Origin: Thermoplasmata archaeon
GTDB taxonomy: Archaea; Thermoplasmatota; Thermoplasmata; GCA-020350865
Direction: 5' to 3'
Length of the DNA: 28,959 nucleotides
Assembly (NCBI GenBank): GCA_020348445.1
Contig: CP070751.1
Coordinates: 1,075,250-1,104,208 of the forward strand
This document shows, in pieces, positions 1-28,959 of the stretch. The notes beneath the pieces are model-generated. The model was not told where the DNA came from and did no database searches. It saw only the letters and a program-made list of their open reading frames with translations. The first letter of the stretch is position 1, and each line of letters begins with the position of its first letter. A program made the position numbers and the translations under genes.

Positions 1-3000
1 CTTAGAGCCTTAAAAGTTGGAATTACAAATGGTATCACCAACGGAAACGGTATCACCAATGGACTTGGGGGAAGGCAGGATCCATTAGAAGGAAAGAAGA
101 CTCTTAATAGATTGGTTATGGTGGTGGTACTGGTCTTGATTATAATTGGAACTCCTTATATCATATTCATAACCCATAGTCAACCAGATACGATTAAGAT
201 AGACGGTAAGTTCAGAGATTGGAGGGGGACGCCGATGATCTCAGATCAAATGGAGGGATCGCCTTTTAATCCCAATATAGATATCGTGGATTACAGGATA
301 GACGATAGAAATCTAGATTTATCCTTCTATTTACGGGTTGCAGGCAATATATTTGCTGGTCAGCCCGTTGGTAAAGAGAATGTGGACACGGCCTACATCT
401 TCATAGACAGGGACCAAAGTCCCGATTCGGGATATTATATTGAGGGTATTGGTGCCGATTATGTTGTTGAGGTGTATGGGCGAAGAGGCAATGTAGTTGG
501 CAGTGCCCTATACTTTTACCAGGCTTTCGAGCAGGATTGGGATCTGTGGGAGATTCATTGCGGTGTCGATGCTTTGGCAAGCGGCTCTGAGCTTGAGATG
601 CAATTCCCATGCAGTGCTATAGATATGAGAAAACAGGATGAAATCGATGTTCTATTTTATATGCAGAGCTGGGACAGATTTGAGGATTTTTCAGATACCA
701 TAATCAGCAATGAAGCTGGTATTCTATCCATTATCCAGCAGGGTGTGAGCGAGGGTGTAATAAACGGTAATGGCAACAGGTTGACCTGTTTGGAATTATA
801 TGCGATAAATTCTGATATTACAGTAAATGAGATAAAGGCAACAAGATTGGGTTTGGGAATCGATAGCGATGTTGTAAGGATAAGGCTTGAGGACGAGATG
901 TGGAATCCCATCACCACAGGTATTATGAACAATGACTTAGTCACATTTCAACCTAGGCTTTTCATACCTGAAGGTCAGAGCTCCACACTTTATATCGTGG
1001 CAGATGTTGGCGCAAGCACAATTGTAGGAAACAGCATTGGATTCAGGATCATGAACAATCACGATGTGGAAATAGACAAGGGCACGGTATCGATAAGACG
1101 TTTAAAACCTGATTTGCAACGTCATGAAAGCGGATACCTGATGGGTGTCCCGGAGAACGTGATAATCGACGGTGCCTTTAAAGATTGGGCAGGTAAGGGC
1201 ATACTAAACGACACCGAAAAAGATGTGGATCGGTGTGATTTGGATATATATAATTATGGAGTTTCGAATACAGATTTCGGAGCTGCATTTTATTTGAGGG
1301 TGGATGATGAAATATGCGGAGGTGTTGCTGTACCTTATTGGAATGTTAAACTTAAACACGAACCTATGATCCAAGAAGAGCCTCCCATCAATGGTACCCC
1401 CCCAGTGGTCTTGCCCAAGACAGGCGAGGACATTGTGTATATTTTCATTGACACGATTCCTTCAAAAGGCTATAGTCGCAACATTCCCATAGATGCGGAT
1501 TATTTAATTGAGATTAAAGGAAGACATAACAAAGTGCAAAACAGGACCTTCTACGAATGGGCTGGTAAAAATAAAGGGGAATGGAGCTGGACAGAGAGTG
1601 GTTTTGTGGATGTGGCTCTGGACTCTTATCAAATGGAAGTGGAAATTGAATGGGATAAGCTTGGAGTTGATCCCCAAAATAGCAGTTATGATGTGTATTT
1701 TTTAACCACTGATTGGGAACGAAGAGAAAAGGATTATTCCAATGGCGAAGGACCCATAACAGGACCCAGGGGAACCAGGGCAGTGACTCTGGCTGAGATT
1801 GCGACTGGAGTTGGCTCTGCTGACAATGACGGATTTGGATGGAATGTCTCATACGCAGGGGATGTGAACGGAGATGGATATCCCGATATCATTGTAGGTG
1901 CCCCTTTCAATGACACGATCGATGGTGCAAATCCAAATTGGTGGAACACTGAATGGACACATCGCAAGAAACTAACATTCGATAACAGCCAACAATCAGA
2001 GGATCTGGAGAACTTTCCGGTTCTGGTCAAATTAAGATCCGAGAATTTCATATATTCGAATGCGAAAGCTGATGGTTCAGATCTAAGGTTCCTAGATCCC
2101 GATGGATCCACTGAGATGAAGTATCATATAGAGAAGTGGGACTCCTCAGGAGATAGCTATGTCTGGGTGAATGTGACCACAATTGATGCCTCTTCGAAAA
2201 CAGACTATATATATATGTACTATGGTAATTCTGGGGCTTCCGATGTTCAGGATATCACAGGGACCTATGATGCTTTCTTTGAGGCAGTGTGGCATTTCAA
2301 TGAGACCTCAGGGACTCATTACGATGCCACATCGAACGATAACGATGGAACGCCCTACAACGGCGTATCCCAGGACAGGACAGGCCAAATAGACGGTGCC
2401 GACGAGTTCAACGGCAGCAACCACCATATCGATATCGATCCGTTCTCCATAAACAATTACACCATCAACTTCTGGTTCAATGGAGACGGGACCATCATGG
2501 GATTCGAGAACATTACCATGAGGACGACCCTGGACCTAAACAGCGAGAGCGCCGATACCACCATCTATGGAGAGGATGTGGATGATTATTCTGGTCGCGC
2601 AGTATCTTCAGGTGATATCAATGGTGACGGATATGACGATGTGATCATAGGCGCTCCTTCTGCGGACCCTGCTGGTGGGGGCGATGCAGGGGAGACATAT
2701 GTCATCTATGGTAAATATAGGGCCTCTGGCTCCACCATCGATCTGAATTCCACATCGGCCGACATCACCATCTATGGAGATGATCTAAATGATTTTTCTG
2801 GTTATGCAGTATCTTCGGGGGATATCAACAATGATGGATATGACGATGTGATAATCGGTGCCTATGGAGCGGACCCTGCTGGTGGGAGCGCTGCAGGAGA
2901 GACCTATGTCATCTACGGTGGAGACTGGGCGTCGGGCTCCTCAATCGATCTGAATTCCCAATCGGCCAATATCACCATCTATGGAGATGATCTAGGTGAT

Positions 3001-6000
3001 AGTTCTGGTTGGGCAGTATCTTCGGGGGATATCAACAATGATGGATATGATGATGTGATCATAGGCGCTCGTAACGCGGACCCTGCTGGAGGATCTCAGG
3101 CAGGAGAGACCTATGTCATCTATGGCGGCGATTGGGCCTCGGGCTCGACGATCGATCTGGATTCGGTATCGGCCAACATCACAATCTATGGAGTTGATCC
3201 GGATGATTCTTCTGGTTATGCAGTATCATCGGGGGATATCAACAATGATGGATATGATGATGTGATCATAGGCGCTTATTGGGCAGATCCCGCTGGTGGA
3301 TCTCAGGCAGGAGAGACCTATGTCATCTATGGCGGCGAATGGGCGTCCGGCTCCACAATTGACCTGAATTCCACATCGGCCAACATCACCATCTATGGAG
3401 ATGATAGCAGTGATTATTCTGGTTCTGCAGTATCTTCAGGGGATATCAACAATGATGGATATGATGATGTGATCATAAGCGCTCCTTCTGCGGACCCTGA
3501 AGAAACGCTCCAGGCAGGGGAGACCTATGTGATCTATGGTGGAGAATGGGCGTCGGGCTCCACAATTGATCTGAATTCGGAATTGGCAAATATCACAATC
3601 TATGGAGTTGATCTAGGTGATCTATCTGGTTGTGCAGTATCTTCGGGGGATATCAATAATGATGGATATGACGATGTGATAATGGGTGTTAGGGGAGCGG
3701 ACCCTGCTGGTGGGAACTTCGCAGGAGAGACATATGTAATCTACGGCGGGGATTGGGCGTCGGAATCTATAATCGATCTGAATTTGGAATCGGCAAACAT
3801 CACAATCTATGGAGATGATGCGGATGATTATTCTGGTTGGGCAGTATCTTCGGGGGATATCAACAATGATGGATATGATGATGTGATCATAGGCGCTCCT
3901 AACGCGGACCCTGCTGGTGGGAGCAGGGCTGGTGAAACATATGTGATAAATCCGGTCTCACCTTATGAGGTGGTTAAGGTCGAAACCATCGACTCCAAGA
4001 TCAGGTCCGTGTTCGCAGTCGATGGTATTACATCCTCTGTCATCTCATCAACCATAGATACCACCGAGTGGCATTCTGCAACTGTCACCAAGGGCAGTGA
4101 CCTGCGACTTTATGTGGATGGCTCCTTGGTAGCAACTTCGAGCGTGGACAGCGGCTCTTTTTCAGAGGCTCTGAACTTCACAATTGGCGTTCTTAACTAT
4201 AACGGCACACTTCTGAACTACTTTGATGGCCTGATCGATGAGATCAAGTTCTCCAACACCGCAAGGAGTGCAGAATGGATAGCAGCCCAGTACCTCACCA
4301 TGACCGATGATTTCATAAATTACGGGGAAGAAGAATCCACATGGTGGAACACCAACTGGAAATATCGTAAGAAACTGAGATTCAACAACCTCGAACAGAC
4401 AGAAAACCAAGAGGATTTCCCTCTAATGGTAAAATTAAGCTCTTCCAATTTCGATTATTCAAAGGCAAAATCAGATGGAACTGATCTTCGATTCATTGAT
4501 TCCGACGGTTCAACCCAGCTTAATTACCATATCGAGAACTGGGACAATTCTGGAAATAGCTATATCTGGGTCAATGTGTCCCAAATCGATGGAGCATCAT
4601 TAGAAGATCACATAAGAATGTATTACGGCAATTCAGGAGCTTCAAATGTCCAGAATGTGGAGGGAACTTATGATATAAACTTCTCCGCAGTTTGGCATCT
4701 GAACGAGACTTCCGGAACCCATTACGATGCCACGTCTAACAATAATGACGGGACAAAGCAGGGAGGTGTAAATCAAGATGTCACTGGATGGATCGGTGGT
4801 GCAGATAGTTTCGATGGTGATGGCGATTATATTGACTGTGGAACAAGTGACAGCTTGAATATCACAAATGCCATTACCATAGAAGCTTGGGTCAAGACCG
4901 ATGGTGAGTCACATGTTTACAATGATCCAGTAGTGGTTAGTAAATATGAAACAGGCAGCAAAAGGGCTTATCTGCTTAAAATCGACGATGATTCTGGACA
5001 GGATGATTGGGACTTCTATCTGAGTTCAAATGGAGATTCATCGGACGGTCAGATCGGTGTCTCAGACGCATGTAAAAATGGTGTATGGCATTACATCGCG
5101 GGAACATGGGACGGCTCCACCATGATCCTTTACAGGAATGCAGATCCCATAGGTACTAACCTTACCTTCACAGGGCCCATCCATCAATCAAGTACCAATC
5201 TGCGTATCGCTGATAGTACCGATTATTTTGAAGAATATAATGGAACAATCGACGAGGTTCGCATATCGGATAAGGCAAGAAGTGAGGACTGGATCAGGAT
5301 CCAATATGTATCCATGGCAGACAGTTTCTTAACATATTGCAATGAGGAGGATATTTTAGATACCGGGGCTGCTTACATATTCTTTGGTTATTCAGGAATA
5401 AGATCCGGTGATATCAATGCATCAAATGCCAATGTCACCATATATGGAGAGAATGCCGGGGATCTTTTCGGATGGAGCGTATCAGATCTCGGGAATGTGG
5501 ACTCCGATTCCAAGGACGACATCATCATTGGCGCACCTGGAGCGGGAGCTGGAAAGGCCTATATCTTCTATGGTCGCACCTCTTGGAGCGCAAGTTATGA
5601 TGCATCATCGGCTGATGTAACAATCACAGGTGAGTATGACGGAAACAGGTTCGGGGCGTCAGTCTCGGGTGCTGGAGATGTGGATAACAGCAACTATAAT
5701 GACATCATTGTTGGAGCCCACAATTATAAGGGTACTGCGTGGTGGAATTCCAATTGGGCAAATCGCATGAAACTGGTTTTTGATAACAGCGATCAAACCG
5801 AATCACTGAGCAATTTCCCGGTCATGGTCAATCTGAGCTCATCGAACTTTGATTATTCCAGCGCAAAGGCAGATGGAACCGATCTGCGGTTCATAGATTC
5901 CGACGAGTCCACCGAACTGGATTATCATATAGAGGACTGGGATTCTTCAGGTTACAGTTATGTTTGGGTGGAGGTTCCACAGATAGATGGCAGTTCCTCT

Positions 6001-9000
6001 TCAGATTATATTTGGTTGTACTATGGGAACTCAGGTGCATCCGATGTTCAGGATATAGAGGGAACATGGGATACGAACTTTACGGCCGTTTGGCATCTGA
6101 ACGAGACCTCGGGAAATATCTATGATGCCACATCGAATAACCATGATGGGACCAAACAGGGTGGTGTGACACAGGATACAACTGGGGTTGTCGATGGTGC
6201 AGATGATTTCGATGGGGATGCCGATTATTATGTTGTTTCCACAACTGCCGCCCTGAACATCACAACGCAGATCACTATTGAAGCTTGGGTCAAACCCGAT
6301 GGAGTTGATCATACAGATGTCGATCTAACCGTGGTTGGCAAGTTTCCCACTAACGACAGGGCATACCAACTTGGATTCAATGATGATTCTGGTGATGCCG
6401 ATGACTGGGATTTCAGATTAAGTTCAGATGGAAGCACTTCTGACGGTCAAGTTCATGTCAGTAATACTGTGGACAATAATCAATGGCAGTACATGGTAGG
6501 AACCTGGGACGGCTCGGATGTAAGGCTATATAAGAATGGAGTTGAAATCGGCACATCGGTTTCCTTCTCAGGTCCGATACATCTCTCAGATGCTGACGTA
6601 TGGATCGGAGACGGATCATATTATGGGTCCATGGACGGATGGCTTGACGAGGTACGCATATCAAATATAGGAAGAAGTGAGGATTGGATTGATGCACAGT
6701 ATCTATCCATGACCGACAATTTCATTACTTATTTGAATCAAGGTTCCGGATGGTGGAATTCCAATTGGGCCTATCGCATGAAGCTGAATTTCGATAACAG
6801 TGCACAAACCGAATCACTGAGTAATTTCCCTGTCATGGTCAAATTGAATTCGTCGAATTTTGATTATTCCAAAATAAATTCTGACGGTTCTGATATACGA
6901 TTCGTAGACGAAGACGATTCCACGGAATTGAGCTTTCATTTCGAAGATTGGAATTATGATGGAACAAGTTATGGATGGGTCAATGTAGATAAAATCGATG
7001 GAAGTTCAAGCTCGGATTATATGTGGTTGTACTATGGCAATCCATCTGCAGCCGATATCCAAGATCCCCGTGGTACCTACAATGAAAATTACTCGGCGGT
7101 GTGGCATTTGGATGAGACCACAGGATATAATTTAGACTCCACCCATAATGGTAATCTCGGTATGCCTTCTGTCAATAATACCCTTGATGCCACTGGAAAG
7201 ATCGATGGGGCGGATTATTTTGATGGGACATATGATGAGGTTTTTGTTTCTAATCATTCGAGTGTAAATCCGCCCAATGATATGACAATTGAAGCATGGG
7301 TGAATATGGAGGTCCTAAGTTCAACGTTGGGCAGAACCCAAACCATCCTGGCCAAACGGCATAGTGCTTCTCCCTTTCAGAGCTATGAACTCTATTTGAG
7401 TAGTGGTAGTGATAGTTTCATCTTTGGATGGGGAAACTCAACCGAGGCGTACGGATATGCAGGTTGGAATGCTGGACCTCCATCGCTAAATACCTGGTAC
7501 TATCTTGTGGGTGTCAGGGATGGCGGGACCTTGCGGTTCTATTTAAATGGAGGTACTACTGGCTGCTATACTGATACCGTCAGTGGGACAATGTATCAAT
7601 CTGATCGTGTACTGGAGCTCGGAAATGATGGTGATGAACATATAAACGGAACCTTGGATGAGGTGAGGCTTTCAAACTCTGCAAGGAGTGCCGATTGGGT
7701 CGCTGCACAGTATCTATCCATGACAGATGCCTTCATTACTTTCGGGAGCCAGGAGGAGGGCCAGAATGGAAAGGCATATATATTCTACGGGGATGGTTCC
7801 ATTCCCACCTCTGCAAGCAGTGCGGACAAGACCTATTTAGGCGAGTCCGCAGGTGACCAGTTCGGCTTCTCTGTTTCGGATGCCGGGGATGTCAACAACG
7901 ACGGTAAAGACGATGTGATCATAGGCGCACCCTATAACGATGATAGTGGAGAAGATGCTGGTGAAGCATATGTCTATATAGGGGATCTCACTGGAACATC
8001 GGATCTCGCAGACAGTGTTACCATAACCTATGGAACCGTAGATGCAGGATCCTACACAGATACTCAGGTAATAGGTGGAAACAGCCATGATATCGATGAG
8101 GAGAACATAAACACCGTAAACCCATATACTGAGACGGTGGATTCCGGTGATGAGACCATAACCGAAGGTGTGAATGAAGCAGGCAGCGACTATACAGACA
8201 CTCAATCAGATAACAATGTATATCAGGAGATAAGCGAGTTATATACAGGTGTCGATAGTACAGTCTATGTTGCCACGAATGATACAGCCAATGGTACAAT
8301 CATCAATTTCAATAATGCGAAAAGCGCCTCCGATGGCGGTGCAAATGCAACTATGGAGGAAGAGTTGATATCATGGTATGGTTCTGAAACCTCGGAGATA
8401 ACAATAGATGACACTGTTGACGATGCTTCTGATGAGTACAATCCGGGTCCCGGTGCGGTTTTTATAAATGAAACAGATGGCTATGTCTTTTATATTGACG
8501 CCACAAGCGATGATGTATGTTACCGGAAAACAACAAATGGTGGAGTTTCATGGGGTTCCGCACAAAGTATCTCAACGGACAGGAACTTCCATAATGTGGC
8601 GATATGGTATGATTTGTGGACTCCAGGTGGAACCAGTACCAGGGTGCATATAGTAGCTTATGGAGATTCCGATGACTCGGTGGTGTACAGATGGCTGGAT
8701 ACCGATGACGATTCATTGCGATCCAGTTGGGTCACTGTCTACGATTCAGGCTCATACACTCCCCCTGATGGTGGTGTATCAATTACCAATTCCACCGATG
8801 GAAATCTCTTCGCTTTGGGTTTTGGTGATACTCCATCAGTTTACAAGTCCACCGACAATGGAGACACGTGGTCCGATATCACACCATCATATTATTTTGA
8901 TGATGTAAACGATCATGCTCAGCTATTACCGTTGTCTGATGGGGATATTCTCTGTGTCTATCATGATGCGAGTACTTATTGGGCTAGATCCTTTGTTTAT

Positions 9001-12147: not shown

Positions 12148-12151
12148 AATA
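12138..12151 (+). promoter_or_regulatory. Possible archaeal BRE/TATA element for ORF2, overlapping the ORF1 stop
   Basis: aaaagcttaaaata, ~55 nt upstream of ATG12206. Sequence resemblance only. Confidence 0.3.
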
Positions 12152-12205
12152 GAACCTTCCGACATAGATAAATCAGGCAATATAGCCGCTAAATGGTGTA
12201 ATGAC

Positions 12206-18367: not shown

Positions 18368-18758
18368 AAGTTGGAGGGAGCAGAATAATAATTGAATCTA
18401 AATTTTATATGAACCATACTAAATAAGATTTGAAATGAAGGTTATTTAATTTGAATTAAAAAGGCCGAATACACCTTATATTTAGTAAAATATCCGGAAA
18501 TTATAAAAAATCATCATTTGTTTTGGTGAAAACCGAGAAACCCTGTATTTAAGTTCGTTATTTAGGTTAATAAAAGGATATTATGATTTCAAACCGGGAT
18601 TATGTTATGATTGCATTTTTCGTACAGATTATTGGATTTTTACTACATAATTAGTATAAATAAACATAGAAATAAAATAGAGTTAGAAAAACCGAAGGTT
18701 CTTGTATATTAGAAGAGAGAGGAAAGCATTCGAAATTTAACACTTGTTATAATCGGTG
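18368..18758. promoter_or_regulatory. 391-bp AT-rich intergenic region, presumed promoter region of ORF3
   Basis: Visibly AT-rich non-coding gap with several TATA-like stretches (e.g. ttgtatatta ~18702, aaatttaa ~18733). The TSS cannot be placed. Confidence 0.5.
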
Positions 18759-18766
18759 ATGGTGGA
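18755..18766 (+). promoter_or_regulatory. Archaeal-type Shine-Dalgarno site (GGTGAT/GGTGGA) at the ORF3 start
   Basis: ggtgatggtgga; GGTGAT ends 7 nt before in-frame TTG18768. Confidence 0.5.
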
Positions 18767-21700
18767 TTTGAGCGGGAATAAAAAAGGGCCAAGGAACTGC
18801 CCCTGTTGTGGAGAGATGATACCCTCAGGGTCCCATAGATGCTCAAATTGCGGCGCTGTTATTAAACTGAAGACTGTAAAAGCCGTTGTTGCCTCTTCAA
18901 AAGAAATCGAGGGTACAGATAAGAAAAACAAAATTTTCAGGGATTTTGTCAAGCGTTACAAGAAAATCGAAGGAATAGCCGAACACAGGCAATCAACGAG
19001 AAGGTCAGGATCACCTAAAATGGTGATAAAGGATGCCCCAGGAAAGTCAAAATCCAAACCAGAACCCAAATTGAAGCCCGAACCTGAATCCAAACCCAAG
19101 CCAAAACAAAAGCCTGAACCGGAGCCTGAACCAGAACTGAGCAATGATGACTTGGATGACTGGGAGAGAAAGTTGGAAGACCTCCTTGGTAAAAAGGTCG
19201 GGACCCTGGTTCCTCAGTTGCCCGAGGATGAAGACCTTGAATTGGACAAAATCGAAACCGAGGAAGATATAAGCCTCGGAGAAGAGGAATCAGATGATTT
19301 TGAGGAAGATTACGAATGTCCCGATTGTGGATATTCCCTGGGCGTAGAAGCAACTTTCTGTCCAAATTGTAAAGCAGAATTTTCAATCACAGATGATCTT
19401 ATAGATGCGCTGGAAGAAGTTGTAGAGGAACAAACAGAAAAAGCACAGGAAGTTGAATTGAGAAAATCGAAGAAGTTGTTGAAACAGAAAAACGAATGCC
19501 CCTCTTGCGGGTGTACTGTTGATCCGTCAGACACAAAATGCCCGATCTGTAAGATGCAATTCAAAGAATTTGAAGAAGTGTTTTTAGATTATGAAGAAAC
19601 ACCTGAAGGATCCCCTCAACCAAAACGGGAGACACCAGAAGATACGGCAAAGGCTGAGGAAGAGTATGAGATAGAGGAGGTAGAGGAATTTGAATGCCCA
19701 ATCTGCAGCGGCATAGTTTCCGAGGACGACATAAGATGTCCGGATTGCGGCGTGGAATTCACAGATTTTGATGAATTACCTGATAAGCTCATTGAATCGT
19801 CAATCGAGGATTTGGACAGGTTCATAGAGGAAACAGCCTCGGAACTTGTGATAGAGGAATCTGTATCTGAAGAGCTTCCCTCAATACCGAGAATGGCAAA
19901 GGAAGGGGATGAGGTAAGAAAAATAGAAGCCGAGCCAACTATGGGGAAGTCCCTGGAGTATCAAAATTTACATATAGACTCATTGATGGAGCAATTAGAG
20001 TTTCTAGGAAAACCAGAACCTGAAAAGAGCAAAGAGAAAAGGATTGCTGAGGAAGGACCAAAATGTCCTATGTGCGAAGCCGATTTTTCTGAGAATGAGA
20101 CCTTCTGTCGAAAATGCGGCATGTTATTGACCCTTGAGACCAAGGCAGATAGAGACCAGGTTTCAGCTTTTATCAGTGGAATACGAGATATAATGAAAGA
20201 GATGCAGATCTCATTGAATGAGGAGGGTATAAGAAAGAGAATACAATCGCTGGACAAGGAGATTTCATTAAACCTCATGAACGAGGAGCTTTGGTTTGAG
20301 AGGGGATTGCTTCTAATTGAACTCGATTCATATAAAAAGGTGCTCAAGTCCTTTGATACTGTTATAAGGCTCAATCCAAATCATAAAAAGGTCTGGATTG
20401 CAAAGGCCGATGTCATGAGAAGGCTCAATCGGATAGAGGAAGCCTCCCGCTGTTATCAAAAAGCATTTGAGATCATGCAAGCGGAGTATCACAAAGAACC
20501 GGGAAAAGAAAAAGAACCAGCAAAACACCCTGTAAAAAGACCTGTAAAAAAACCCGTTGCACCTGATCGAATCAAGCCTGATTTGGGTCTAGCAGGTGGT
20601 ATAAAACAGGGAGAGGATATAACAGAGGGTCCAAGAGGTGGTCTTACAAACGGCCTAAGAAAAGCAAGAGGTCGGGGCTTAACCAATGGCCTGACAAACG
20701 GAGTGAAAAGGGGCAAGCGAGGATTGACCAATGGCCTCACAAACGGAGTGAAAAGGGGCAGGCGCGGATTGACAAATGGACTTACAAACGGCCTCACGAA
20801 CGGATTGACCAATGGTCTAACAAACGGATTGAAGAGGGCCAGGCTGGGTCTTACCAACGGCCTCACAAACGGTCTGACTAACGGAATAACAAACGGTCTT
20901 ACAAACGGTCTTCGGGCTTTGAAGATGGGCCTTACAAATGGCATCACCAACGGTAACGGTATCACAAATGGCCTAGGTGGAGGCCAGGCTTTATTGAAGG
21001 GAAAGAGCTCAAAAAGCAGAATGGTAATGGTGGCTCTGATTGCATTGTGCTTGATTTTTGCACCTTATCTCATTTACATAACCCAGGCTCCACCCGATAA
21101 AATAGAAATAGACGGCAAATTTGGAGACTGGAGGGGAATAACCACCACAACCGATATGAACGATGGTGCGCCTTTTAATCCAAACGTCGACATAATCGAT
21201 TACAGGGTAGACTCCAGGGTGATGGAGCTTTCATTTTATCTGAAGGTCGAGGGTGTCATGTTGGCAGGTGAACCTGGTGATGGAAGACATGTTGATTGTG
21301 CATATATTTTTATGGATATTGATCAAAGTCCTGATACTGGGTATTTAATCAAAGGTATTGGTGCTGATGTCATGGCCGAGATATATGGATGGGACAGTGA
21401 GATTCTCGGCAGCTCCCTTTACAGTTATGAGGCTCCAGAACAGGATTGGAATCTGTGGGAGGTGATAACCAGTATCGCAGTTGCTGTTGGTGGATCAGAA
21501 CTGGAGGCCCAGCTTACACTATCTACACTTTATCTTGATAAAAATGACGAGGTTGATGTTCTATTTTATATGCAAAGCTGGGATGGTTTCGACGATTTTT
21601 CTGATACTATAATATCCAACAAGGAGGGTATTTTAACTGTTAGGCAGCAGGGTGTTGGTGAGGATGAAATAACTGGAAACGGTAACAGATTGCTTAAACT

Positions 21701-24700
21701 GGAACTCGAAGCGAAAAAAGCTGATATCACCTTAACCGAGCTGAAGGCCACAAGAACTGGATTTGGCAGCGATAGCGATGTGGCAAGTATAAGGCTAGAA
21801 AATGAAAATCGAAATTCTGTGGCAGCTGGTTCTCTGTCAAATGGTATAGCCACATTCAGATCGGGAGTGTCATTATCAGAGGGGCAGACAACTGTACTCT
21901 ATATTGTTGTGGATGTAGCCAGCACCGCGATAGCTCATAACAGCATTGGCTTTGTTATCATGACGCATCATGATGCAGTGACAGACAGGGGAACAGTAAA
22001 TTTAGAAAAAGTGAAATCTGAGGCTTGGCAAAATGAAGTCAGTTATATACTTGGTGTGCCAACAAATGTAACTATAGACGGGGCATTCGCAGATTGGGAT
22101 GGCAAACTCAAAAGCAACGAGACTGGCGGGGATGTGAACCGAAGGAATTTGGATATATTGGAATATGGGATTTCCAGTACAGACGAAGGACCTGCTTTCT
22201 TTTTACGGGTAGACTCCGAGATATGCGGAGGCGTTGCAGTGCCGTACTGGAATAAAAAAGCCAAAACAGAGCCTATAGTAGGAGCAATGGTGGGAGGTGA
22301 ATCCCAAATCTCAGAGATAAGTCCTAAGACCGGAGAAGATGTGGTTTATGTTTTCATTGATACGAACTCAGGGACAGGCTACAGATGGGGTCTTCCCATA
22401 TCCGCAGATTATATGATCGAGATTACTGGGAGGCATAACAAAGTATTAAGTAAAATCTATTATGAATTTTCAGGAACTAATTTCTTTAATTGGGTCTGGA
22501 CCGTCCTCGGAGAGGTGGATGTTGGCTTGGATTTACTGAATATGGAAATAGGATTAGATTGGAACGAGATCGGAATCGATCCATATTCTGAATATTTTGA
22601 GGTTTACTTTTTGTCCACGGATTGGGAGAAATCTGAGGTTGATTATTCAGATGATGCTTTACCATTTTCCCTGAATCAGACGATATTGGACAACCTGCTT
22701 GCAAGCAGAAGGGGAACTCGTGGGTATTACACGACAGATCATGTTCATCCGAACGATGCAGCAAATTCGGATGGTGAAGTAACAGATTATCAAAATTTGG
22801 ATGAGGATGCAGCAGGTGACAGCACTTATGAAAACAGCGGTGACAAAAATGATCCTGGTGTAGATTGGATCGAGGTCTACTTCCCAAGCGTGACCATTCC
22901 TGACACTGCCACCATCCATAACATCACATTATATTATGGTTACTATACTGAAGATGGTTGGGAATTGACAACAGATGCAACCTCAAATATCACCTGGAGA
23001 GTTGACGCAACAGAAAATGACCTTGGAAATTACACCCTCAGTGATCCTGCTGATACAGATATTGATGCTACATTAATATTAACCACGAACCTACCTACAA
23101 AATCAAATCTAGCCTCTGGTAACTTTAAAATAAGATTTAGAGGAATCGATGGTGGTGGCAAAGATGAATTTTGGTTGGATTACTGTTACTTCACAATAAA
23201 TTATTCTTACTATTATTATGATGTTAGAATAAACGAAATTATGGCAGACCCTGTTGGGGGAGGGCCCTTTGACGATGATTGGTCGTACCGAAAGGCAATC
23301 ACAATCGATCATACGAAGGTAGTTGAGGATCTGGAGGATTTCCCTGCGTTGATCAGCATCACAGACTCCGACCTTGCGAGCAAGGCACAATCTGATGGGG
23401 ACGACATCTTATTTGTTGCCTCCGATGGAGAGACCAAACTTGATCACGAAATTGAGATTTATACGAGCACTACAGGTGAACTGGTCGCATGGGTTAAGAT
23501 CCCTCTTCTCAGCTCGACTCATGATACCACAATCTACATGTATTATAATAATCCAGATGCCACTGATCAACAGAATTCTGAAGATGTTTGGAGCAACAAT
23601 TACAGATTCGTGGGGCATCTTAGCGAGACAAGTGGTTATTGTTACGACTCCACATCTTATGGGATATCAGCGACACCGGATGTATCGATAGCTCGGGGTG
23701 AAACTGGTCAAATAGGTTATGCCTATCTATTCGACGGGGTGAGTGCTGAGGTGGACTTTCTTACCATTCCTGATGGTCACCTCGATTTTGGTACGAACAG
23801 TATGACTGTCAGTTGTTGGGTGAATGTTAATGAAACATCAGGATATCAGGACTATGTGACTAAAGGAGGACAAGGTACTACAGATGGAGGTTATGCCATT
23901 CGTTCAAGGGATAATGGTGATCAAAGTTATTTTCGTGTTACAGATACAGTAACTTCAGAAACAACCAATTTCAGGTTTGCAAATTACACCTGGGCGTATC
24001 TGGTGGGTGTATGTGACAGAACAAGTGACGTGGGACGGATTTATGTAGATGGTGTAGATCACACTGAAGATGATGGTGACACCATTGCCTCTGGTTTTGG
24101 TGGGATCGACGCGTCCACCGAAGATTTTAAAATAGGAGATGATGCTGAGACACCAGAAGGTTTGATCGACGAGGTTCGCGTCTCTTATGGAGCACACTCC
24201 GAAGGATGGATAATCACAGAATTCAACAATCAATACTCCCCTTCGACATTTCACTCAGTCGGGGCTGAGGAATTAAATAGTGCAGGATGGTCGTATCGCA
24301 AGTCAATCACAATTAATTCAAGTAAGGTTACAGGTGATCTCAACAATTTCCCTGTTCTTATCAACATCACGGACTCCGACCTCGCCAACGATGCACGGTC
24401 AGATGGGTATGATATTGTTTTCACTTTATCCGACGGCATAACCTCTCTTGATCACGAGATCGAGAGCTTCAACAGCACTTCAGGTCAATTATTTGCATGG
24501 GTTAAGATTCCCAGCCTATCATCATCCTCTGACATCACAATTTACATGTATTACGGAAATAGCGGACAGAGTATCCCAACAGAAAATCCAACTGGTGTTT
24601 GGGATTCAAATTATGTAATGGTTCAGCATTTGGAGGAGAGCCCAGCAAATGACGTAGAAGGACATCTTGATTCCACTTCTAACGACAATGACGGCACACC

Positions 24701-27700
24701 AAAGAATTTCGCAGGGACAGCAGGTTCAACAACTGATGCAACGGGCAAAATAGACGGAGCTGACGAGTTTGATGGGGTCGATGATCATGTTGATTGTGGG
24801 AATGATGCGAGTTTGAATATTACTGCAACTGAGATAACAATGGAAGTTTGGGTATATGGTGAATTCCCAACGCAATACAAGAGATATAATGTCTTAAACA
24901 AATACAATCGTGGAACAGGAGGTTACGGCCTAGTAATTTATAGACATTCAAATAATATAGGCACACCAGAGGCTTACCTTCAAAATAGCTCAACATATAG
25001 TGAAAGTCTATGTGGAAATACATATGTAATTAATCCTAATACTTGGCATCATGTTGTTTTTACTTGGGATTCTCCTAATGGTTCTATGTATGTAGATGGA
25101 GTGAAGAGGGCTGATTGTGATTTTGGTGGTTCTATAAATCCTAATCCAAGTAAAAACCTTTGGATAAGTAGATCTGGAGGTGCATCAGGTTCAGATGTAT
25201 ATTGGAACGGCACAATCGATGAAGTCCGAATCTCCAATGTTGCTCGCTCGGGGAACTGGATCAATACTTCATATATCAACCAGAATGATATAAGCTCGTT
25301 CCTTTATGCAGGCAGTGAAGAATCTCTCAGTGGATCAGCAGGCTACGAATGGGTAGAGATTTACAACGCCGAAAGCTCCTCTGTGGATCTCACAGAATGG
25401 TATCTTAAAGATCATCAGGGACACGCTTTCGATTTAAGTGGTGCAGGCAGCATTTCAGCTGGAGGCTATTTGATATGCCATCTGGGTGAGACTGGAACTA
25501 ACAGTTCCACAGATGTCTATGACTCTGCTTATAGTATAACTTTCCAGCCAGATGCAACCGATGGAATAGACAACTTCTTGGATGATTCCGCTTCTACAGT
25601 TAATTTCGGAACAACCACATATCTAGATGTGGAGAACAATACTAATCAAAGAAGACCGATTCTCCAATTCAATCTGTCAGGCTTGCAACAGGGTAAAGTT
25701 TCAGAGGCCAAGGTCTACTTATACAGGTATGACGGGGATATAACCAATGATGCCGATGTCAATGTGCACAGGATGACCCAGAATTGGACAGAGTCAGATC
25801 CAGGTGGTTCTGATTGGAATACGTATGACAACTCCAATAATTGGGTGACTTCCGGTGGTGATTACGATAGCACAGTCGAAGACACAACAACAGTCCAGGG
25901 TGGATCAACAGCATGGTATTCGTGGGATATCACTGATTTGGTCGAAGATTGGATAAGTGGTATGTATGATAATAATGGCATGATTTTCGAGGCAGATCCT
26001 AGTGGGTATCCTCAATATTTCTTTTCAAGTGATTATAATACTGATACAAGTAAGAGACCAAAACTCGTTGTCAATATGACATCGACTCGAATACTCGATT
26101 ATACAGACGGTCTGTATCTTTATCTTAGCTCAGATTCGGTAATGGATTATATAGCTTGGGGTGGTGATCCAGGTTCATGGGATGATGACGCTGTAGATGC
26201 AGGTCATTGGACTGCAGGGGATTATATTAACACCTCATCCATTTCCGAGAATCAATCATTTGGCCGCGATAGGGACTGTACAGATACAAACTCCTCCTCT
26301 GATTGGGAAGGACCTGAGACAAACAAGGCAGATCCTTTTGGCATTCATTCTGGTTCTTGGACACAAGGTTCGGTAAATAATGATCAGGCCATAATCATCA
26401 ATGAAATCATGTTCAATCCCAATGGAAATCCCTACGATAATGGTTGGGATTATAAGAAGAAGATTACGATTCATGCAGGGAAGGTTATGGACGATCTCAC
26501 TGATTTCCCTGTGGTTTTGGATATGACCCTATGGGATCTGGCGACCTATGCTCAATCCGACGGTGGCGATATTCTCTTTGTGGGTGCGGACAATGATACA
26601 AAACTCGACCATGAAATTGAGAAGTTCAACAGCACCACAGGCCAATTGGTGGTATGGATAAAAATACCCTTTCTCTCCTCAACCAATGATACAGTTCTAT
26701 GGATGTACTACGGCAATTCAAGTTGTGGAAACCAGCAGAATCCCAAAGAGGTTTGGAGTAATGGCTTTGCAGGTGTATATCATTTGGAGGAAGATGATCA
26801 ACCATACGCTAACTCAGTTTCCTCGGGTAACTACGGCTCCTGGTGGCTGCCACCTGAAAGAACCTCGGGACAAATTAGTTACGGGCAGGAGTTTGGAGGA
26901 GTATCTGGAGGCGTCGATTATGACCATATGATCGCTGTTGGTGATTTTGGAGAATGCAATGGAACAAATACGAATCTCACAGTCTCCGGCTGGGCCTGGA
27001 TCAATGATTCTTATCTTGATGATTATGCCAAAATTTTTTACAAGAGAAACGCAGCCGACGATGGCGTTTCCTATCAATTGGAGTTTGGTAGCGAGGTTTC
27101 TGATAAGAATATTGGCTGGGCAATCCAGGGAGATTCGCTTGGTAGAAGGGCTGTTGCCAAATACTGTTGGGTGTACGTTGCCGGAACATACAATGGCACC
27201 ACGAAAATATTGTACATAAACGGAAGCGAAGCTTCTCGTGATTACGATACATCAGGGGCACTTGTAAGCACGCCATCTCAAGTGACGTTCGGTTCTGGAG
27301 ATAGTCCTAGTCAAAACTTTGGAGGCATACTGGATGAGATGAGGGTAGCTATAGCAACACGCTCGCCTGCGTGGCTTGCCACAGAGTTCAACAATATGTT
27401 GGATCCCAGTACCTTCTTCAGTATCGGGGACTGTAATAATCGGAAAATCGTCACAATAAATTCATCTCAGGTGTCCGGGGATTTAACAGATTTCCCTGTA
27501 TTTGTTAATATCACAGATTCGGACCTTTCTGCCAATGCACGAGGCGATGGATATGATATTTACTTCACCTCTTTAGACGGTACAACCAAGCTTCATCATG
27601 AAGTTGTAAGTTACGACGGAAGTTCAGGAGGCTTGAGAGCCTGGGTGCGCATACCTTCGCTTTCCTCATCCGCGGACACCAACATATACATGTATTACAA

Positions 27701-28959
27701 CAACCCACTTGCAGGAGATCATTCAAATCCCAAGCGTGTTTGGGATGATGATTATAGGGGAGTGTGGCACCTCGGGGAGCTTCCTAGAGAGAATCATGAA
27801 AATCAAATTTTGGACAGCTCGTCTTACATGAACCACATGCGATCGTATGGATCAATGGATCAAACTGATCAGGTGAATGGAAGAATCGATGGAGCATTGG
27901 ATTTTGATGGGAGTGACGCCTATCTGCAAAGACATTATTCTTTTGCAGATAATGTGAATTTAGGTACAAATGATTATACAATAGAGGCCTGGGTCCAACT
28001 GGATTCCACAGGGTTATTAGCCTATCCAACGATCTGCAATAAGGGTGGAAGTGGGCCTGATACCGCAGGATATTGGTTCTTCGAATACAGAGATAACGAT
28101 GATTTCAGGATGTATTTTGGAGATGGTGATGGTTCACAAAGGGTAACTGCAGACAGTAAAGATGATATTAAGGATGACCAGTGGCATCATGTGGTGGTAT
28201 CGGTAGATAGGGACGGGCCTGTCATTTTTTTCCTCGATGGTAAACTCGATAATCTTAAGGCTGCAAGTTCAAAAGATGGAAAAAACTTGGATAATCCCAC
28301 ATACAGCTTTGAAATCAGTGATTCAGGTTCGAGCTCTAGATGGAAGGGTTTAATCGATGAAGTCCGCATCTCAACCACGGTAAGAAACTATGACTGGATC
28401 AATACTTCATACAAGAACATCATAAACTCCACTTTATTCTGCTCTGTTGGCATTGAAGAGGCAGTTGAATTCTGGTATGCATCCGATTGGAGCTTCCGCA
28501 AGAAGATCACAATAAATTCATCAAAAGTGTCTGATGGTCTTGCCGACTTCCCAATGCTCGTGAATCTCACAGATTCTGATCTAGCAAACGATGCACGTTC
28601 GGATGGATACGATATAATATTTGTCCAAGGCTCTACTAAACTCGATCACGAGATAGAGAGCTTTAATAGTACATCAGGTGAGTTACTTGCCTGGGTGAAC
28701 GTCCCGTGGCTTTCTCCTATACAGGATAAGTTTATCTATATGTATTATGGAAACAGCGGCCAGAGCACTCCAACAGAGCATTCATATGGCGTTTGGAGCA
28801 ATGGATACCTGGGCGTTTATCATATGGTGGAGGAGACTGGAAGTATAGAGAACTCGGTATCTTTGTCCAATTACGGAACTAGGGGTGACTCGCCAACAAG
28901 GGTCTCAGGTCGAATCGGTTATGGGCAGGAGTTCACAGGAAGCACAGGTGATGACAGGT
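18759..28959 (+). CDS. Giant surface protein, 3'-partial (>=3400 aa), absent from ORF track: Zn ribbons, TPR, GLTN repeats, TM, conserved ectodomain, jelly roll, lamin-tail domains, >=5x DUF2341+LamG, DNRLRE-like domain
   Basis: Hand translation of frame 3 from ATG18759 (MVDLSGNKKGPRNCPCCGEMIPSGSHRCSNC...) gives no stop up to the window end. It is homologous to ORF1 and ORF2 over GLTN-TM-IEIDGKFGDW...DYSDD. An alternative start TTG18768 follows a GGTGAT SD-like site. Confidence 0.93.
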   Translation, partial: MVDLSGNKKGPRNCPCCGEMIPSGSHRCSNCGAVIKLKTVKAVVASSKEIEGTDKKNKIFRDFVKRYKKIEGIAEHRQSTRRSGSPKMVIKDAPGKSKSKPEPKLKPEPESKPKPKQKPEPEPEPELSNDDLDDWERKLEDLLGKKVGTLVPQLPEDEDLELDKIETEEDISLGEEESDDFEEDYECPDCGYSLGVEATFCPNCKAEFSITDDLIDALEEVVEEQTEKAQEVELRKSKKLLKQKNECPSCGCTVDPSDTKCPICKMQFKEFEEVFLDYEETPEGSPQPKRETPEDTAKAEEEYEIEEVEEFECPICSGIVSEDDIRCPDCGVEFTDFDELPDKLIESSIEDLDRFIEETASELVIEESVSEELPSIPRMAKEGDEVRKIEAEPTMGKSLEYQNLHIDSLMEQLEFLGKPEPEKSKEKRIAEEGPKCPMCEADFSENETFCRKCGMLLTLETKADRDQVSAFISGIRDIMKEMQISLNEEGIRKRIQSLDKEISLNLMNEELWFERGLLLIELDSYKKVLKSFDTVIRLNPNHKKVWIAKADVMRRLNRIEEASRCYQKAFEIMQAEYHKEPGKEKEPAKHPVKRPVKKPVAPDRIKPDLGLAGGIKQGEDITEGPRGGLTNGLRKARGRGLTNGLTNGVKRGKRGLTNGLTNGVKRGRRGLTNGLTNGLTNGLTNGLTNGLKRARLGLTNGLTNGLTNGITNGLTNGLRALKMGLTNGITNGNGITNGLGGGQALLKGKSSKSRMVMVALIALCLIFAPYLIYITQAPPDKIEIDGKFGDWRGITTTTDMNDGAPFNPNVDIIDYRVDSRVMELSFYLKVEGVMLAGEPGDGRHVDCAYIFMDIDQSPDTGYLIKGIGADVMAEIYGWDSEILGSSLYSYEAPEQDWNLWEVITSIAVAVGGSELEAQLTLSTLYLDKNDEVDVLFYMQSWDGFDDFSDTIISNKEGILTVRQQGVGEDEITGNGNRLLKLELEAKKADITLTELKATRTGFGSDSDVASIRLENENRNSVAAGSLSNGIATFRSGVSLSEGQTTVLYIVVDVASTAIAHNSIGFVIMTHHDAVTDRGTVNLEKVKSEAWQNEVSYILGVPTNVTIDGAFADWDGKLKSNETGGDVNRRNLDILEYGISSTDEGPAFFLRVDSEICGGVAVPYWNKKAKTEPIVGAMVGGESQISEISPKTGEDVVYVFIDTNSGTGYRWGLPISADYMIEITGRHNKVLSKIYYEFSGTNFFNWVWTVLGEVDVGLDLLNMEIGLDWNEIGIDPYSEYFEVYFLSTDWEKSEVDYSDDALPFSLNQTILDNLLASRRGTRGYYTTDHVHPNDAANSDGEVTDYQNLDEDAAGDSTYENSGDKNDPGVDWIEVYFPSVTIPDTATIHNITLYYGYYTEDGWELTTDATSNITWRVDATENDLGNYTLSDPADTDIDATLILTTNLPTKSNLASGNFKIRFRGIDGGGKDEFWLDYCYFTINYSYYYYDVRINEIMADPVGGGPFDDDWSYRKAITIDHTKVVEDLEDFPALISITDSDLASKAQSDGDDILFVASDGETKLDHEIEIYTSTTGELVAWVKIPLLSSTHDTTIYMYYNNPDATDQQNSEDVWSNNYRFVGHLSETSGYCYDSTSYGISATPDVSIARGETGQIGYAYLFDGVSAEVDFLTIPDGHLDFGTNSMTVSCWVNVNETSGYQDYVTKGGQGTTDGGYAIRSRDNGDQSYFRVTDTVTSETTNFRFANYTWAYLVGVCDRTSDVGRIYVDGVDHTEDDGDTIASGFGGIDASTEDFKIGDDAETPEGLIDEVRVSYGAHSEGWIITEFNNQYSPSTFHSVGAEELNSAGWSYRKSITINSSKVTGDLNNFPVLINITDSDLANDARSDGYDIVFTLSDGITSLDHEIESFNSTSGQLFAWVKIPSLSSSSDITIYMYYGNSGQSIPTENPTGVWDSNYVMVQHLEESPANDVEGHLDSTSNDNDGTPKNFAGTAGSTTDATGKIDGADEFDGVDDHVDCGNDASLNITATEITMEVWVYGEFPTQYKRYNVLNKYNRGTGGYGLVIYRHSNNIGTPEAYLQNSSTYSESLCGNTYVINPNTWHHVVFTWDSPNGSMYVDGVKRADCDFGGSINPNPSKNLWISRSGGASGSDVYWNGTIDEVRISNVARSGNWINTSYINQNDISSFLYAGSEESLSGSAGYEWVEIYNAESSSVDLTEWYLKDHQGHAFDLSGAGSISAGGYLICHLGETGTNSSTDVYDSAYSITFQPDATDGIDNFLDDSASTVNFGTTTYLDVENNTNQRRPILQFNLSGLQQGKVSEAKVYLYRYDGDITNDADVNVHRMTQNWTESDPGGSDWNTYDNSNNWVTSGGDYDSTVEDTTTVQGGSTAWYSWDITDLVEDWISGMYDNNGMIFEADPSGYPQYFFSSDYNTDTSKRPKLVVNMTSTRILDYTDGLYLYLSSDSVMDYIAWGGDPGSWDDDAVDAGHWTAGDYINTSSISENQSFGRDRDCTDTNSSSDWEGPETNKADPFGIHSGSWTQGSVNNDQAIIINEIMFNPNGNPYDNGWDYKKKITIHAGKVMDDLTDFPVVLDMTLWDLATYAQSDGGDILFVGADNDTKLDHEIEKFNSTTGQLVVWIKIPFLSSTNDTVLWMYYGNSSCGNQQNPKEVWSNGFAGVYHLEEDDQPYANSVSSGNYGSWWLPPERTSGQISYGQEFGGVSGGVDYDHMIAVGDFGECNGTNTNLTVSGWAWINDSYLDDYAKIFYKRNAADDGVSYQLEFGSEVSDKNIGWAIQGDSLGRRAVAKYCWVYVAGTYNGTTKILYINGSEASRDYDTSGALVSTPSQVTFGSGDSPSQNFGGILDEMRVAIATRSPAWLATEFNNMLDPSTFFSIGDCNNRKIVTINSSQVSGDLTDFPVFVNITDSDLSANARGDGYDIYFTSLDGTTKLHHEVVSYDGSSGGLRAWVRIPSLSSSADTNIYMYYNNPLAGDHSNPKRVWDDDYRGVWHLGELPRENHENQILDSSSYMNHMRSYGSMDQTDQVNGRIDGALDFDGSDAYLQRHYSFADNVNLGTNDYTIEAWVQLDSTGLLAYPTICNKGGSGPDTAGYWFFEYRDNDDFRMYFGDGDGSQRVTADSKDDIKDDQWHHVVVSVDRDGPVIFFLDGKLDNLKAASSKDGKNLDNPTYSFEISDSGSSSRWKGLIDEVRISTTVRNYDWINTSYKNIINSTLFCSVGIEEAVEFWYASDWSFRKKITINSSKVSDGLADFPMLVNLTDSDLANDARSDGYDIIFVQGSTKLDHEIESFNSTSGELLAWVNVPWLSPIQDKFIYMYYGNSGQSTPTEHSYGVWSNGYLGVYHMVEETGSIENSVSLSNYGTRGDSPTRVSGRIGYGQEFTGSTGDDR
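18798..20117 (+). other. Five Zn-ribbon (CxxC-x10-CxxC) units with Pro/Lys/Glu-rich spacers, ORF3 cytoplasmic head
   Basis: CPCC..CSNC, CPDC..CPNC, CPSC..CPIC, CPIC..CPDC, CPMC..CRKC; KPEPKLKPEPESKPKPKQKPEPEPEPE linker at ~19056-19140. Confidence 0.88.
20283..20480 (+). other. TPR pair in ORF3
   Basis: EELWFERGLLLIELDSYKKVLKSFDTVIRLNPNHKKVWIAKADVMRRLNRIEEASRCYQKAFEI fits the TPR consensus (W..[RK][GA].......Y..A..[CS][YF]....[LI].P). Confidence 0.8.
20640..20975 (+). repeat. 18 G[LI]TN tetrapeptide units in blocks separated by basic spacers (ORF3)
   Basis: Hand count of 18 units; spacers LRKARGR, VKRGKR, VKRGRR, LKRARL, LRALKM; codons are synonymously scrambled. Confidence 0.95.
21021..21083 (+). 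other. N-terminal transmembrane signal-anchor of ORF3
   Basis: KGKSSKSR followed by MVMVALIALCLIFAPYLIYIT. Confidence 0.88.
21102..22721 (+). other. Conserved ectodomain of ORF3
   Basis: From IEIDGKFGDW through VLFYMQSWDGFDDFSDTIISN and KTGEDVVYVFID to DYSDD...RRGTR. Confidence 0.85.
23223..26380 (+). other. Split lamin-tail domain (LTD) no. 1 of ORF3 (segments 23223-23252, ~25341-25520, ~26091-26380)
   Basis: VRINEIMADP ... EWVEIYN..SSVDLTEWYLKD..GHAF......ISAGGY ... LYL..SDSVMDYIAWG...SFGRD.D.TDT...DW matches the LTD consensus in three pieces. Confidence 0.7.
23280..28959 (+). repeat. >=5 DUF2341+LamG modules in ORF3 (starts 23280, 24288, 26445, ~27441, 28473; last truncated)
   Basis: Typical unit W.[YF][RK]K.ITI...KV...L.[DN]FP.....TD.DLA..A.SDG.DI.F......LDHEIE.....G.L.AWV.[IV]P, followed by LamG motifs. 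Confidence 0.85.
25533..26076 (+). other. DNRLRE/CBM96-like domain in ORF3
   Basis: ITFQPDATDGIDNFL...NFG...LQFNLS...A.VYLY...VHRMTQNWTE...W....GGDY...SWDITDLVEDW...NNG...RPKLVV. Confidence 0.65.

Follow-up and report, generated by a model that had tools for sequence, protein, structure and literature searches.

The stretch of DNA analyzed here, 28,959 nt of a Thermoplasmata archaeon genome (assembly GCA_020348445.1, contig CP070751.1, positions 1,075,250 to 1,104,208 of the forward strand; hereafter the window), carries three giant open reading frames (ORFs), all in the same orientation on the plus strand: ORF1 (1..12147), ORF2 (12206..18367), and ORF3 (18756..28958). On balance, we favor the interpretation that they are tandem members of a Thermoplasmata family of display proteins, which cross the membrane once with the N terminus inside, are probably anchored at both ends, and bind extracellular polymers. 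The family is real, large, and unnamed. Its parts are of known kinds, but it is unusual to find a cytoplasmic head and a constant base combined with exchangeable passengers and a second anchor of the sortase type.

The three proteins are built around a common block, located at residues 1-594 of the ORF1 protein (P0001), 374-967 of the ORF2 protein (P0002), and 719-1305 of the ORF3 protein (P0003), with 50-54% identity by BLASTP. It consists of a cap, GITNGITNGNGITNG, one transmembrane (TM) helix, and an ectodomain of ~535 aa. In all three proteins the block ended at a DYS..G.RG motif, and BLASTP detected no collinear similarity between them beyond it; therefore, the three ORFs switch to different distal regions, or passengers, at one place just past this motif. 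A first-pass annotation, made by a model from the sequence of the window, had described three adjacent, co-oriented genes sharing a cap, a TM helix, and an ectodomain of ~530 aa, which the ORF calls and the BLASTP block bear out. It had also considered that the constant region might turn out to be an already characterized family, but no named family was matched: the module returned no Pfam match (E <= 10), no NCBIfam match, and no PDB sequence match (E < 0.1).

An AlphaFold model of the constant module, computed from a 33-row alignment, was confident (predicted local distance difference test, pLDDT, 90.8; predicted template modeling score, pTM, 0.89) and contained three beta domains, D1 to D3. 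In a wide structure search at the domain level (VIA), D1 matched the carbohydrate-binding module (CBM) CBM9 of 1i82 (Z 10.9, root-mean-square deviation [rmsd] 3.5, 152 residues aligned), 4jpq (Z 11.0), and the DOMON-like subunit of ethylbenzene dehydrogenase, 2ivf (Z 10.8). D2 matched sialidase N-terminal immunoglobulin (Ig)/CBM domains (Z 11.3) and cohesins (Z 7-8), D3 matched Sas6, 7uwu (Z 13.2, rmsd 3.1, 170 residues aligned), and the D2-D3 pair matched residues 691-1018 of glucodextranase 1ulv (Z 10.8). Foldseek with the whole 550-aa model returned only generic multi-Ig matches (TM-score ~0.1-0.2). From the predicted structure, the domains can be classed confidently as CBM9/DOMON-like (D1), Ig/cohesin-like (D2), and CBM9/CBM74-like (D3), and D1 and D3, which share an IDGxFxDW start, are an internal duplication. 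The likeness to CBM9/DOMON-like modules, the C-terminal domains of glucodextranase, and Sas6 thus lies in the folds of D1 and D3 (Z 10.8-13.2 over 150-170 residues) and in the D2-D3 pair, at 11-14% sequence identity and without a Pfam CBM9 match, and is a comparison of folds, not of ligand-binding residues. The arrangement of two CBM9-like domains flanking an Ig-like domain beside a TM helix is specific to the present family. As a separate observation, the start of D3 (for example, residues 326-372 of protein P0063) matched positions 1-46 of TIGR04145 (Firmicu-CTERM) below threshold in 16 of 20 members, with a best E of 1e-8; an IDGAFxDW-type domain may also stand ahead of sorting signals in Firmicutes.

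The orientation of the proteins was assessed across the family. In 111 of 112 members, the 15 residues on the N side of the TM helix carried more positive charge than the 15 on its C side (+4.25 versus -1.98), and heads of 21 to 1291 aa (median, 271) preceded this sole N-terminal TM helix. There was no ordinary N-terminal signal peptide, and only one long head had a hydrophobic N terminus. KaiC ATPase domains were fused in the heads of two paralogues from the same genome, F12 and F19 (89.5 and 86.1 bits), other paralogue heads carried HhH, SAP, or TPR domains, and one head appears to carry HTH_24, a winged helix-turn-helix (wHTH) domain. In the window, CxxC pairs were restricted to the heads (10 each in ORF2 and ORF3), and N-glycosylation sequons occurred almost exclusively in the ectodomains. 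Given the charge bias, the scarcity of hydrophobic N termini, the cytoplasmic domains found in heads, and the split between CxxC pairs and sequons, the sequences argue strongly for cytoplasmic heads (N-in). Pfam and NCBIfam also matched the Zn-ribbon heads that had been described for ORF2 and ORF3, and added a TPR domain in ORF3. Between head and cap lies a tract of NG repeats; we rejected the idea that it serves as a slippage or phase-variation tract, since its units carry synonymous differences (75-90% matches).

ORF1 and ORF2 end in a tripartite PEF-type signal, comprising an IPEY or IPEF motif, respectively, a TM helix, and a basic cluster (KRRKK in ORF1, KRKKR in ORF2). A hidden Markov model (HMM) of this tail, built from 20 other members, scored 33.7 bits with ORF1 and 28.7 bits with ORF2, and it matched all 15 of the 15 paralogues that are complete at the 3′ end, each with IPEF, a TM helix, and a basic cluster. 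The claim that ORF1 and ORF2 end in PEF-CTERM therefore stands as far as the motif, helix, and KR cluster and the family HMM are concerned, but not by the NCBIfam cut-off. The only match to the ORF1 tail was PEFG-CTERM, at 16.8 bits against a cut-off of 25, while 10 of 20 relatives with the same aligned tail matched TIGR03024 at E <= 1, one of them, the best, reaching the cut-off (23.6 bits versus 23). An ArtC-like sortase gene (L001:1336-2562, minus strand) passed the exo/archaeosortase signature (43.9 bits versus 23), and the genome has a separate ArtA gene (149 bits). Among 401 sampled genomes of the class, the module was present in 164, in a sharply bimodal pattern by taxonomic family, and ArtC-like orthologues in 109. 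The ArtC-like sortase was found in 16 of the 22 taxonomic families that carry the module, and in the eight families without the module (190 genomes) it was not found either. The co-occurrence with artC that the first-pass annotation proposed to look for was thus seen at the level of taxonomic families, but with a gene that scores below the curated cut-off.

According to Haft et al. 2012, as cited in PMC5244752 and PMC9723798, PEF-CTERM proteins are sorted by archaeosortase C (TIGR03024/TIGR03762). The present family resembles that system in its tripartite PEF/PEY, TM, and basic C terminus, in the ArtC-like gene, and in their co-distribution in the class. It differs in having a long cytoplasmic head and a signal-anchor TM helix instead of a short signal peptide, in the scores of the ORF1 and ORF2 tails and of the sortase, all of which fall under the curated cut-offs, and in its host, which belongs to Thermoplasmata and not to Methanosarcinales or ANME. 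By analogy, the expected mechanism would be that of ArtA, which cleaves PGF-CTERM substrates such as the Haloferax S-layer glycoprotein (PMC11980579, 10.1101/2023.06.07.544157): removal of the C-terminal helix would leave the protein anchored in the membrane. The motif and the sortase subfamily differ, and ArtA is a separate gene here.

Beyond the window, tblastn found ~19 copies of the module in the genome, several of them in tandem groups; CxxC-rich heads and NG repeats are present in nearly all of these paralogues. Searching 1.84 billion representatives with a profile of the module recovered 1070 clusters at E <= 0.001, of which 364 passed E <= 1e-30; the best 150 of the 1070 clusters had the same layout, with passengers of 0 to ~5,900 aa. 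By record titles, the closest loci belong to metagenome-assembled genomes (MAGs) of Thermoplasmata and Methanomassiliicoccales. Passengers elsewhere include S8 peptidase, DUF11, beta-helix, lamin-tail (LTD), and CBM96 domains, and public names follow whichever accessory domain was recognized (hypothetical protein, S8 family serine peptidase, zinc ribbon, DUF2341, lamin tail, TPR, DUF11, or beta-helix). The profile search, the copy number, and the range of passengers, all proposed as checks in the first-pass annotation, agree with its picture of a fixed membrane-spanning module joined to variable ectodomains and cytoplasmic heads, which holds across the family. It had put the combination forward as a candidate undescribed system, and a literature search, which was not exhaustive, found no publication describing the family.

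Three further observations concern relatives of the window genes. In CP070739.1, which is titled a complete chromosome, a 100-N gap lies inside the constant module of the closest ORF2 relative (L009, ~5200), so family copy numbers taken from that record are minimum values; a frameshift in this relative was considered and rejected, as the interruption is the gap. Paralogue F10 (positions 2657444-2669188 of the source assembly, G000; 3915 aa) has TM helices at aa 13-31, 2876-2894, and 3148-3166 and the constant module only at 3169-3724, and it appears to have a giant outer part, then a short cytoplasmic loop, then the usual base and PEF tail. The Pfam set of paralogue F14 (P0163; G000 3423525-3430190) includes an S8 subtilisin-type peptidase and an HTH_24 winged-helix domain; if the latter lies in the head, F14 would be a membrane-tethered protease with a DNA-binding head.

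Comparison of the paralogues revealed mosaicism within the constant module. Between the cap and about residue 210 of the module, paralogue F02 and ORF1 shared 77-95% identity, and F02 remained nearer to ORF1 than to ORF3 until about residue 420 (55-78%; 79.7% nucleotide identity over window 1-1535). From about residue 430 on, F02 was 64-92% identical to ORF3, except for a short divergent stretch just past the junction, and its head is also ORF3-like. Trees of positions 1-400 grouped F02 with ORF1 (support 1.000) and another paralogue, F03, with ORF2 (0.998), while trees of positions 440-536 grouped F02 with ORF3 (0.925). Since the two parts of the module conflict with strong support, the paralogues have recombined inside it, with mappable breakpoints at about residues 420-450. 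An assembler chimera was rejected as the source of the F02 mosaic, as the partners, ~80% identical overall at the nucleotide level, share exact matches of at most 43 and 72 nt. F03 combines an ORF2-like front with a passenger that has no similarity to that of ORF2. The proposed exchange at a single junction was right in that the ORFs switch after DYS..G.RG, but the breakpoints that can be mapped lie inside the module.

The closest relatives in a same-genus MAG keep collinear passengers (ORF3 versus L005, 61-63%; ORF2 versus L009, 61%). Therefore, the repertoire has stayed stable across this distance, and the constant module serves as the stretch of homology for exchange. Where the first-pass annotation described a polymorphic family, the family looks like a stable, recombining repertoire of paralogues rather than a rapidly swapping polymorphic locus. 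Its mosaic members illustrate how such repertoires diversify.

Each protein is organized in six parts. A modular cytoplasmic head, with Zn ribbons with or without TPR in the window and also KaiC, wHTH, HhH, or SAP domains in paralogues, would offer a docking site for cytoplasmic partners. It is followed by an h-x-N-G repeat tract ending in the nearly invariant cap, by one TM helix, and by the conserved membrane-proximal base of three beta domains, which would act as a fixed stalk for the variable distal passenger, and finally by the PEF-type tail (PEF/PEY, TM helix, and basic cluster). An ArtC-like archaeosortase may cut this tail and re-anchor the protein, which would then be tied to the membrane at both ends. 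Display of lectin-like and propeller modules, and in relatives of protease modules, may allow the cell to adhere to other cells or to extracellular glycans and polymers, and to bind or process them. The repertoire grows by tandem duplication and by recombination within the constant module. Bacterial fibrillar adhesins and integrin-like FG-GAP/LamG proteins likewise string together many beta domains and carry lectin-like and propeller modules on a stalk, away from the cell; unlike the bacterial fibrillar adhesins, the present family is archaeal, has cytoplasmic heads, and would be anchored by a TM helix and a PEF tail instead of an LPXTG motif or the outer membrane.

Several points weigh against display of polymer-binding proteins anchored at both ends. 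The family is known from sequence and predicted structure alone, and no partner genes lie in the window. The fold matches to CBMs at Z 10-13 indicate a fold and not sugar binding, and the AlphaFold2 model of the ORF2 passenger was poor overall (pLDDT 57.5). Regarding the second anchor, the tails of ORF1 and ORF2 did not match TIGR03024, the ArtC-like gene scored 53.8 bits with TIGR03762 against a cut-off of 100, and no ArtC-like gene was found with the query used in five taxonomic families that carry the module (f3, f5, f7, f14, and f28). Because related genomes are not independent, the co-distribution of module and sortase overstates the support it gives. The most probable role is still the display of binding and degradative modules, with signaling a serious rival.

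According to that rival, which we consider possible though distinctly less probable, the proteins are trans-membrane sensors. A passenger would bind a polymer, its state would be passed through the base and TM helix or by regulated proteolysis to the Zn-ribbon head, and the head would engage KaiC-like ATPases and wHTH regulators, as an archaeal counterpart in logic of one-component sensors of the RsgI/ToxR type. The layout of a cytoplasmic head, one TM helix, and variable ectodomains of carbohydrate-binding type is consistent with this, as are the KaiC fusions in F12 and F19 and the HhH, SAP, and wHTH domains in other heads. Immediately upstream of F02 is a gene pair encoding a KaiC-like protein (140 bits) and a wHTH protein (HTH_24, 31.7 bits), genes with ORF3-type heads in three other MAGs (L006, L011, and L019) have KaiC orthologues upstream of them, and another KaiC orthologue adjoins a family gene in L010. 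In addition, ~100 nt ahead of the ORF3 start and immediately upstream of a TATA-like box, there is a conserved non-coding element of ~45 nt built from two 21-nt direct half repeats (18605..18652, plus strand). Copies with 92-100% identity occur upstream of ORF1, F02, and genes in four other MAG loci (G000 1156067-1156114 and 1552870-1552916; L007 5100-5140; L019 4065-4106; L006 1920-1964; L011 3443-3478), while the proteins encoded downstream, with ORF3-type heads, are only 45-60% identical. The element is a candidate operator for the neighboring wHTH regulator. The link to KaiC is clear at paralogues, but no KaiC or regulator gene was present on the window contig or on contig 53, which lies upstream of it (see below). 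Also against this rival, ectodomains of 2,000-4,000 aa and a second membrane anchor would be unusual for sensors, and some passengers are proteases.

The comparison with RsgI is one of design and not of ancestry, as it is with ToxR. RsgI proteins are anti-sigma-I polysaccharide sensors of Clostridium thermocellum, and in its nine RsgI paralogues, too, the periplasmic domain is conserved while the sensors vary (PMC10328401, PMC12203970). Shared features are a family of paralogues, an N-in cytoplasmic effector, one TM helix, a conserved extracytoplasmic domain, and variable carbohydrate-binding modules. The present family has no homology to RsgI, ToxR, or histidine kinases, no anti-sigma domain or sigma-I partner, ectodomains about 10 times larger, and a second, C-terminal anchor. 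Pfam and NCBIfam scans of the three proteins and nine paralogue heads found neither an RsgI_N anti-sigma nor an OmpR-type DNA-binding domain. A more specific version, which is somewhat more doubtful still, is a Thermoplasmata-specific trans-envelope sensing system in which a ligand captured by the passenger would act through the base and TM helix on the head, and from there through KaiC and wHTH proteins on the 45-nt operator, with recombination re-pairing sensors and heads. If true, archaea would have a new means of linking the cell surface to gene control.

It is unlikely that the family instead forms a structural envelope, that is, a glycocalyx or S-layer-like coat of a wall-less cell, with the base mediating lateral or membrane contacts and the heads linking the coat to structures in the cytoplasm. 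The proteins are large, acidic, rich in sequons, and apparently anchored at both ends, there are many copies per genome, and archaeosortase substrates include S-layer glycoproteins (PMC5244752). Yet 19 paralogues whose distal domains are unrelated do not fit an S-layer, for which one or two abundant proteins are the norm; the passengers here are of lectin-like, propeller, and protease types, and no lattice-forming domain was recognized. We consider it very improbable that the giant ORFs and mosaics are artifacts of repeat mis-assembly in a metagenome bin, or decaying pseudogenes: the window is a MAG contig that breaks inside family repeats, the bin is 81.7% complete with 3.8% contamination, and the same-genus "chromosome" has its gap within the closest ORF2 relative, but the window frames run uninterrupted for 2,053 to 4,048 codons, the same layout occurs in hundreds of independent assemblies, the exact matches of the mosaic partners are too short and diverged for an assembler chimera, and the synonymous variation suggests purifying selection.

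The window corresponds to an entire MAG contig and is bounded at either end by 100-N joins in the source assembly, which is a string of ~350 contigs; because of these joins, the contigs adjacent in the assembly are not its true neighbors. Two other contigs of the same bin, 158 and 160 (G000 1857976-1859795 and 1861799-1863597), both start with the last 99 nt of contig 53 and end in the first 99 nt of the window. They are 87% identical at the nucleotide level, and each is an open stretch of ~600 aa encoding Zn ribbons, a TPR-like part, and GLTNG/KRKRR repeats. They are thus alternative ORF1 heads, with identical bounding 99-mers and different numbers of GLTNG/KRKRR units, and represent either two co-existing strains or a collapsed duplicate array. 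Contig 53 provides the ORF1 start codon region, MIGLNEEKETSQLCPNCKK, preceded by a ~290-nt spacer and, before that, by the last 1696 aa of a fourth family gene, whose passenger is of LamG/DUF2341 type and whose tail carries IIPEF. With the overlapping contigs accepted, ORF1 would encode ~4,700 aa in full. The window contig begins within ORF1, so the absence of a head there is an assembly cut, and the contrast drawn by the first-pass annotation between ORF1 and its two headed neighbors disappears. Its proposal to extend the contig succeeded on the 5′ side; past the 3′ end of ORF3, no continuing contig was found among the binned contigs.

Within the window, all features below are on the plus strand. 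ORF1 encodes 4048 aa, with its 5′ end cut by the contig end. Its juxtamembrane cap, GITNGITNGNGITNGLGGRQD (19..81), is followed by the TM helix (115..171, aa 39-57), oriented by positive-inside statistics, and by the constant ectodomain D1-D2-D3 (175..1779). The passenger contains five DUF2341-LamG units, ~17 FG-GAP repeats, and a central sub-threshold BNR region. In the first DUF2341-LamG unit (2071..4281), LamG is split into aa 778-835 and aa 1347-1427 (window 2332-4281), corresponding to its first ~58 and last ~80 residues (HMM positions 82-161 for the latter), by seven FG-GAP repeats of 69 aa (aa 865-1313, nt 2593-3939), which looks like the insertion of a whole propeller into a loop of the lectin domain. 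Three more units with interspersed FG-GAP repeats (4474..7701), the central region with Asp-box-like motifs (7978..10530), a fifth unit followed by FG-GAP repeats (10750..11559), and the C-terminal sorting-type tail (11992..12144) complete the protein. The FG-GAP and DUF2341-LamG labels first given to ORF1 were matched in Pfam and NCBIfam (FG-GAP, DUF2341, and Laminin_G_3), but the BNR label, given to ORF1 and ORF2 alike, was not, with scores below the cut-offs (22.7 < 27.3 and 15.8 < 31.4).

ORF2 is complete at 2053 aa. Its head (12206..13141) carries the ten CxxC pairs, as Zn ribbons (DZR), and acidic linkers; h-x-N-G repeats with a GITNG cap (13142..13405), the TM helix (13436..13492, aa 411-429), and the constant ectodomain (13499..15106) follow. 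The first ~290 aa of the passenger (15107..18241) were left without assignment, and after them come two beta-propellers (~nt 16154-16786 and 17504-18106), predicted from two stretches of the model at pLDDT 75-88 that match tandem beta-propellers (GH74, LRP6, and Photorhabdus lectins). No Pfam match to this passenger exceeded the cut-off, the ESM Atlas yielded nothing informative for it, and the "WapA-N-like" label it had been given found no match in the domain scans. The double-propeller passenger is rare: a search of 5.8 billion proteins found only four relatives, among them a hypothetical protein from [Eubacterium] cellulosolvens, a rumen bacterium, with 33% identity across one-third of the query. 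The tail (IPEF, TM helix, and KRKKR) occupies 18269..18364.

ORF3 encodes 3401 aa in the window, with its 3′ end cut by the contig end. Zn ribbons, acidic and basic linkers, and the TPR (aa 511-573) make up its head (18756..20675), which is followed by GLTNG/KRxRR repeats with a GITNG cap (20676..20990), the TM helix (21024..21080, aa 757-775), and the constant ectodomain (21081..22730), the region that was modeled (D1, 1-183; D2, 184-327; D3, 328-535). The passenger comprises two DUF2341-LamG units (23394..25262), a lamin-tail domain followed by a DNRLRE/CBM96 domain (25290..26075), and two further DUF2341-LamG units with the start of a third (26559..28859), in agreement with the LTD, DUF2341-LamG, and DNRLRE domains first named there, all of which were matched in Pfam and NCBIfam. 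Two minus-strand ORFs of >150 aa, opposite repeat and acidic tracts, look spurious, and Rfam and tRNA scans of the window returned no matches.

Uncultured sediment Thermoplasmata are abundant heterotrophs whose cell surfaces are essentially unknown. Up to ~19 proteins of this family are encoded per genome, some of them >4,000 aa in length. The constant module, with its HMM and confident model, provides a handle for finding and expressing members of the family and for asking what these cells bind, and the occasional fusion of heads to KaiC or DNA-binding modules, together with the conserved upstream element, provides a testable link between the surface and regulation. The family could reveal how Thermoplasmata archaea hold, and perhaps sense, extracellular material.

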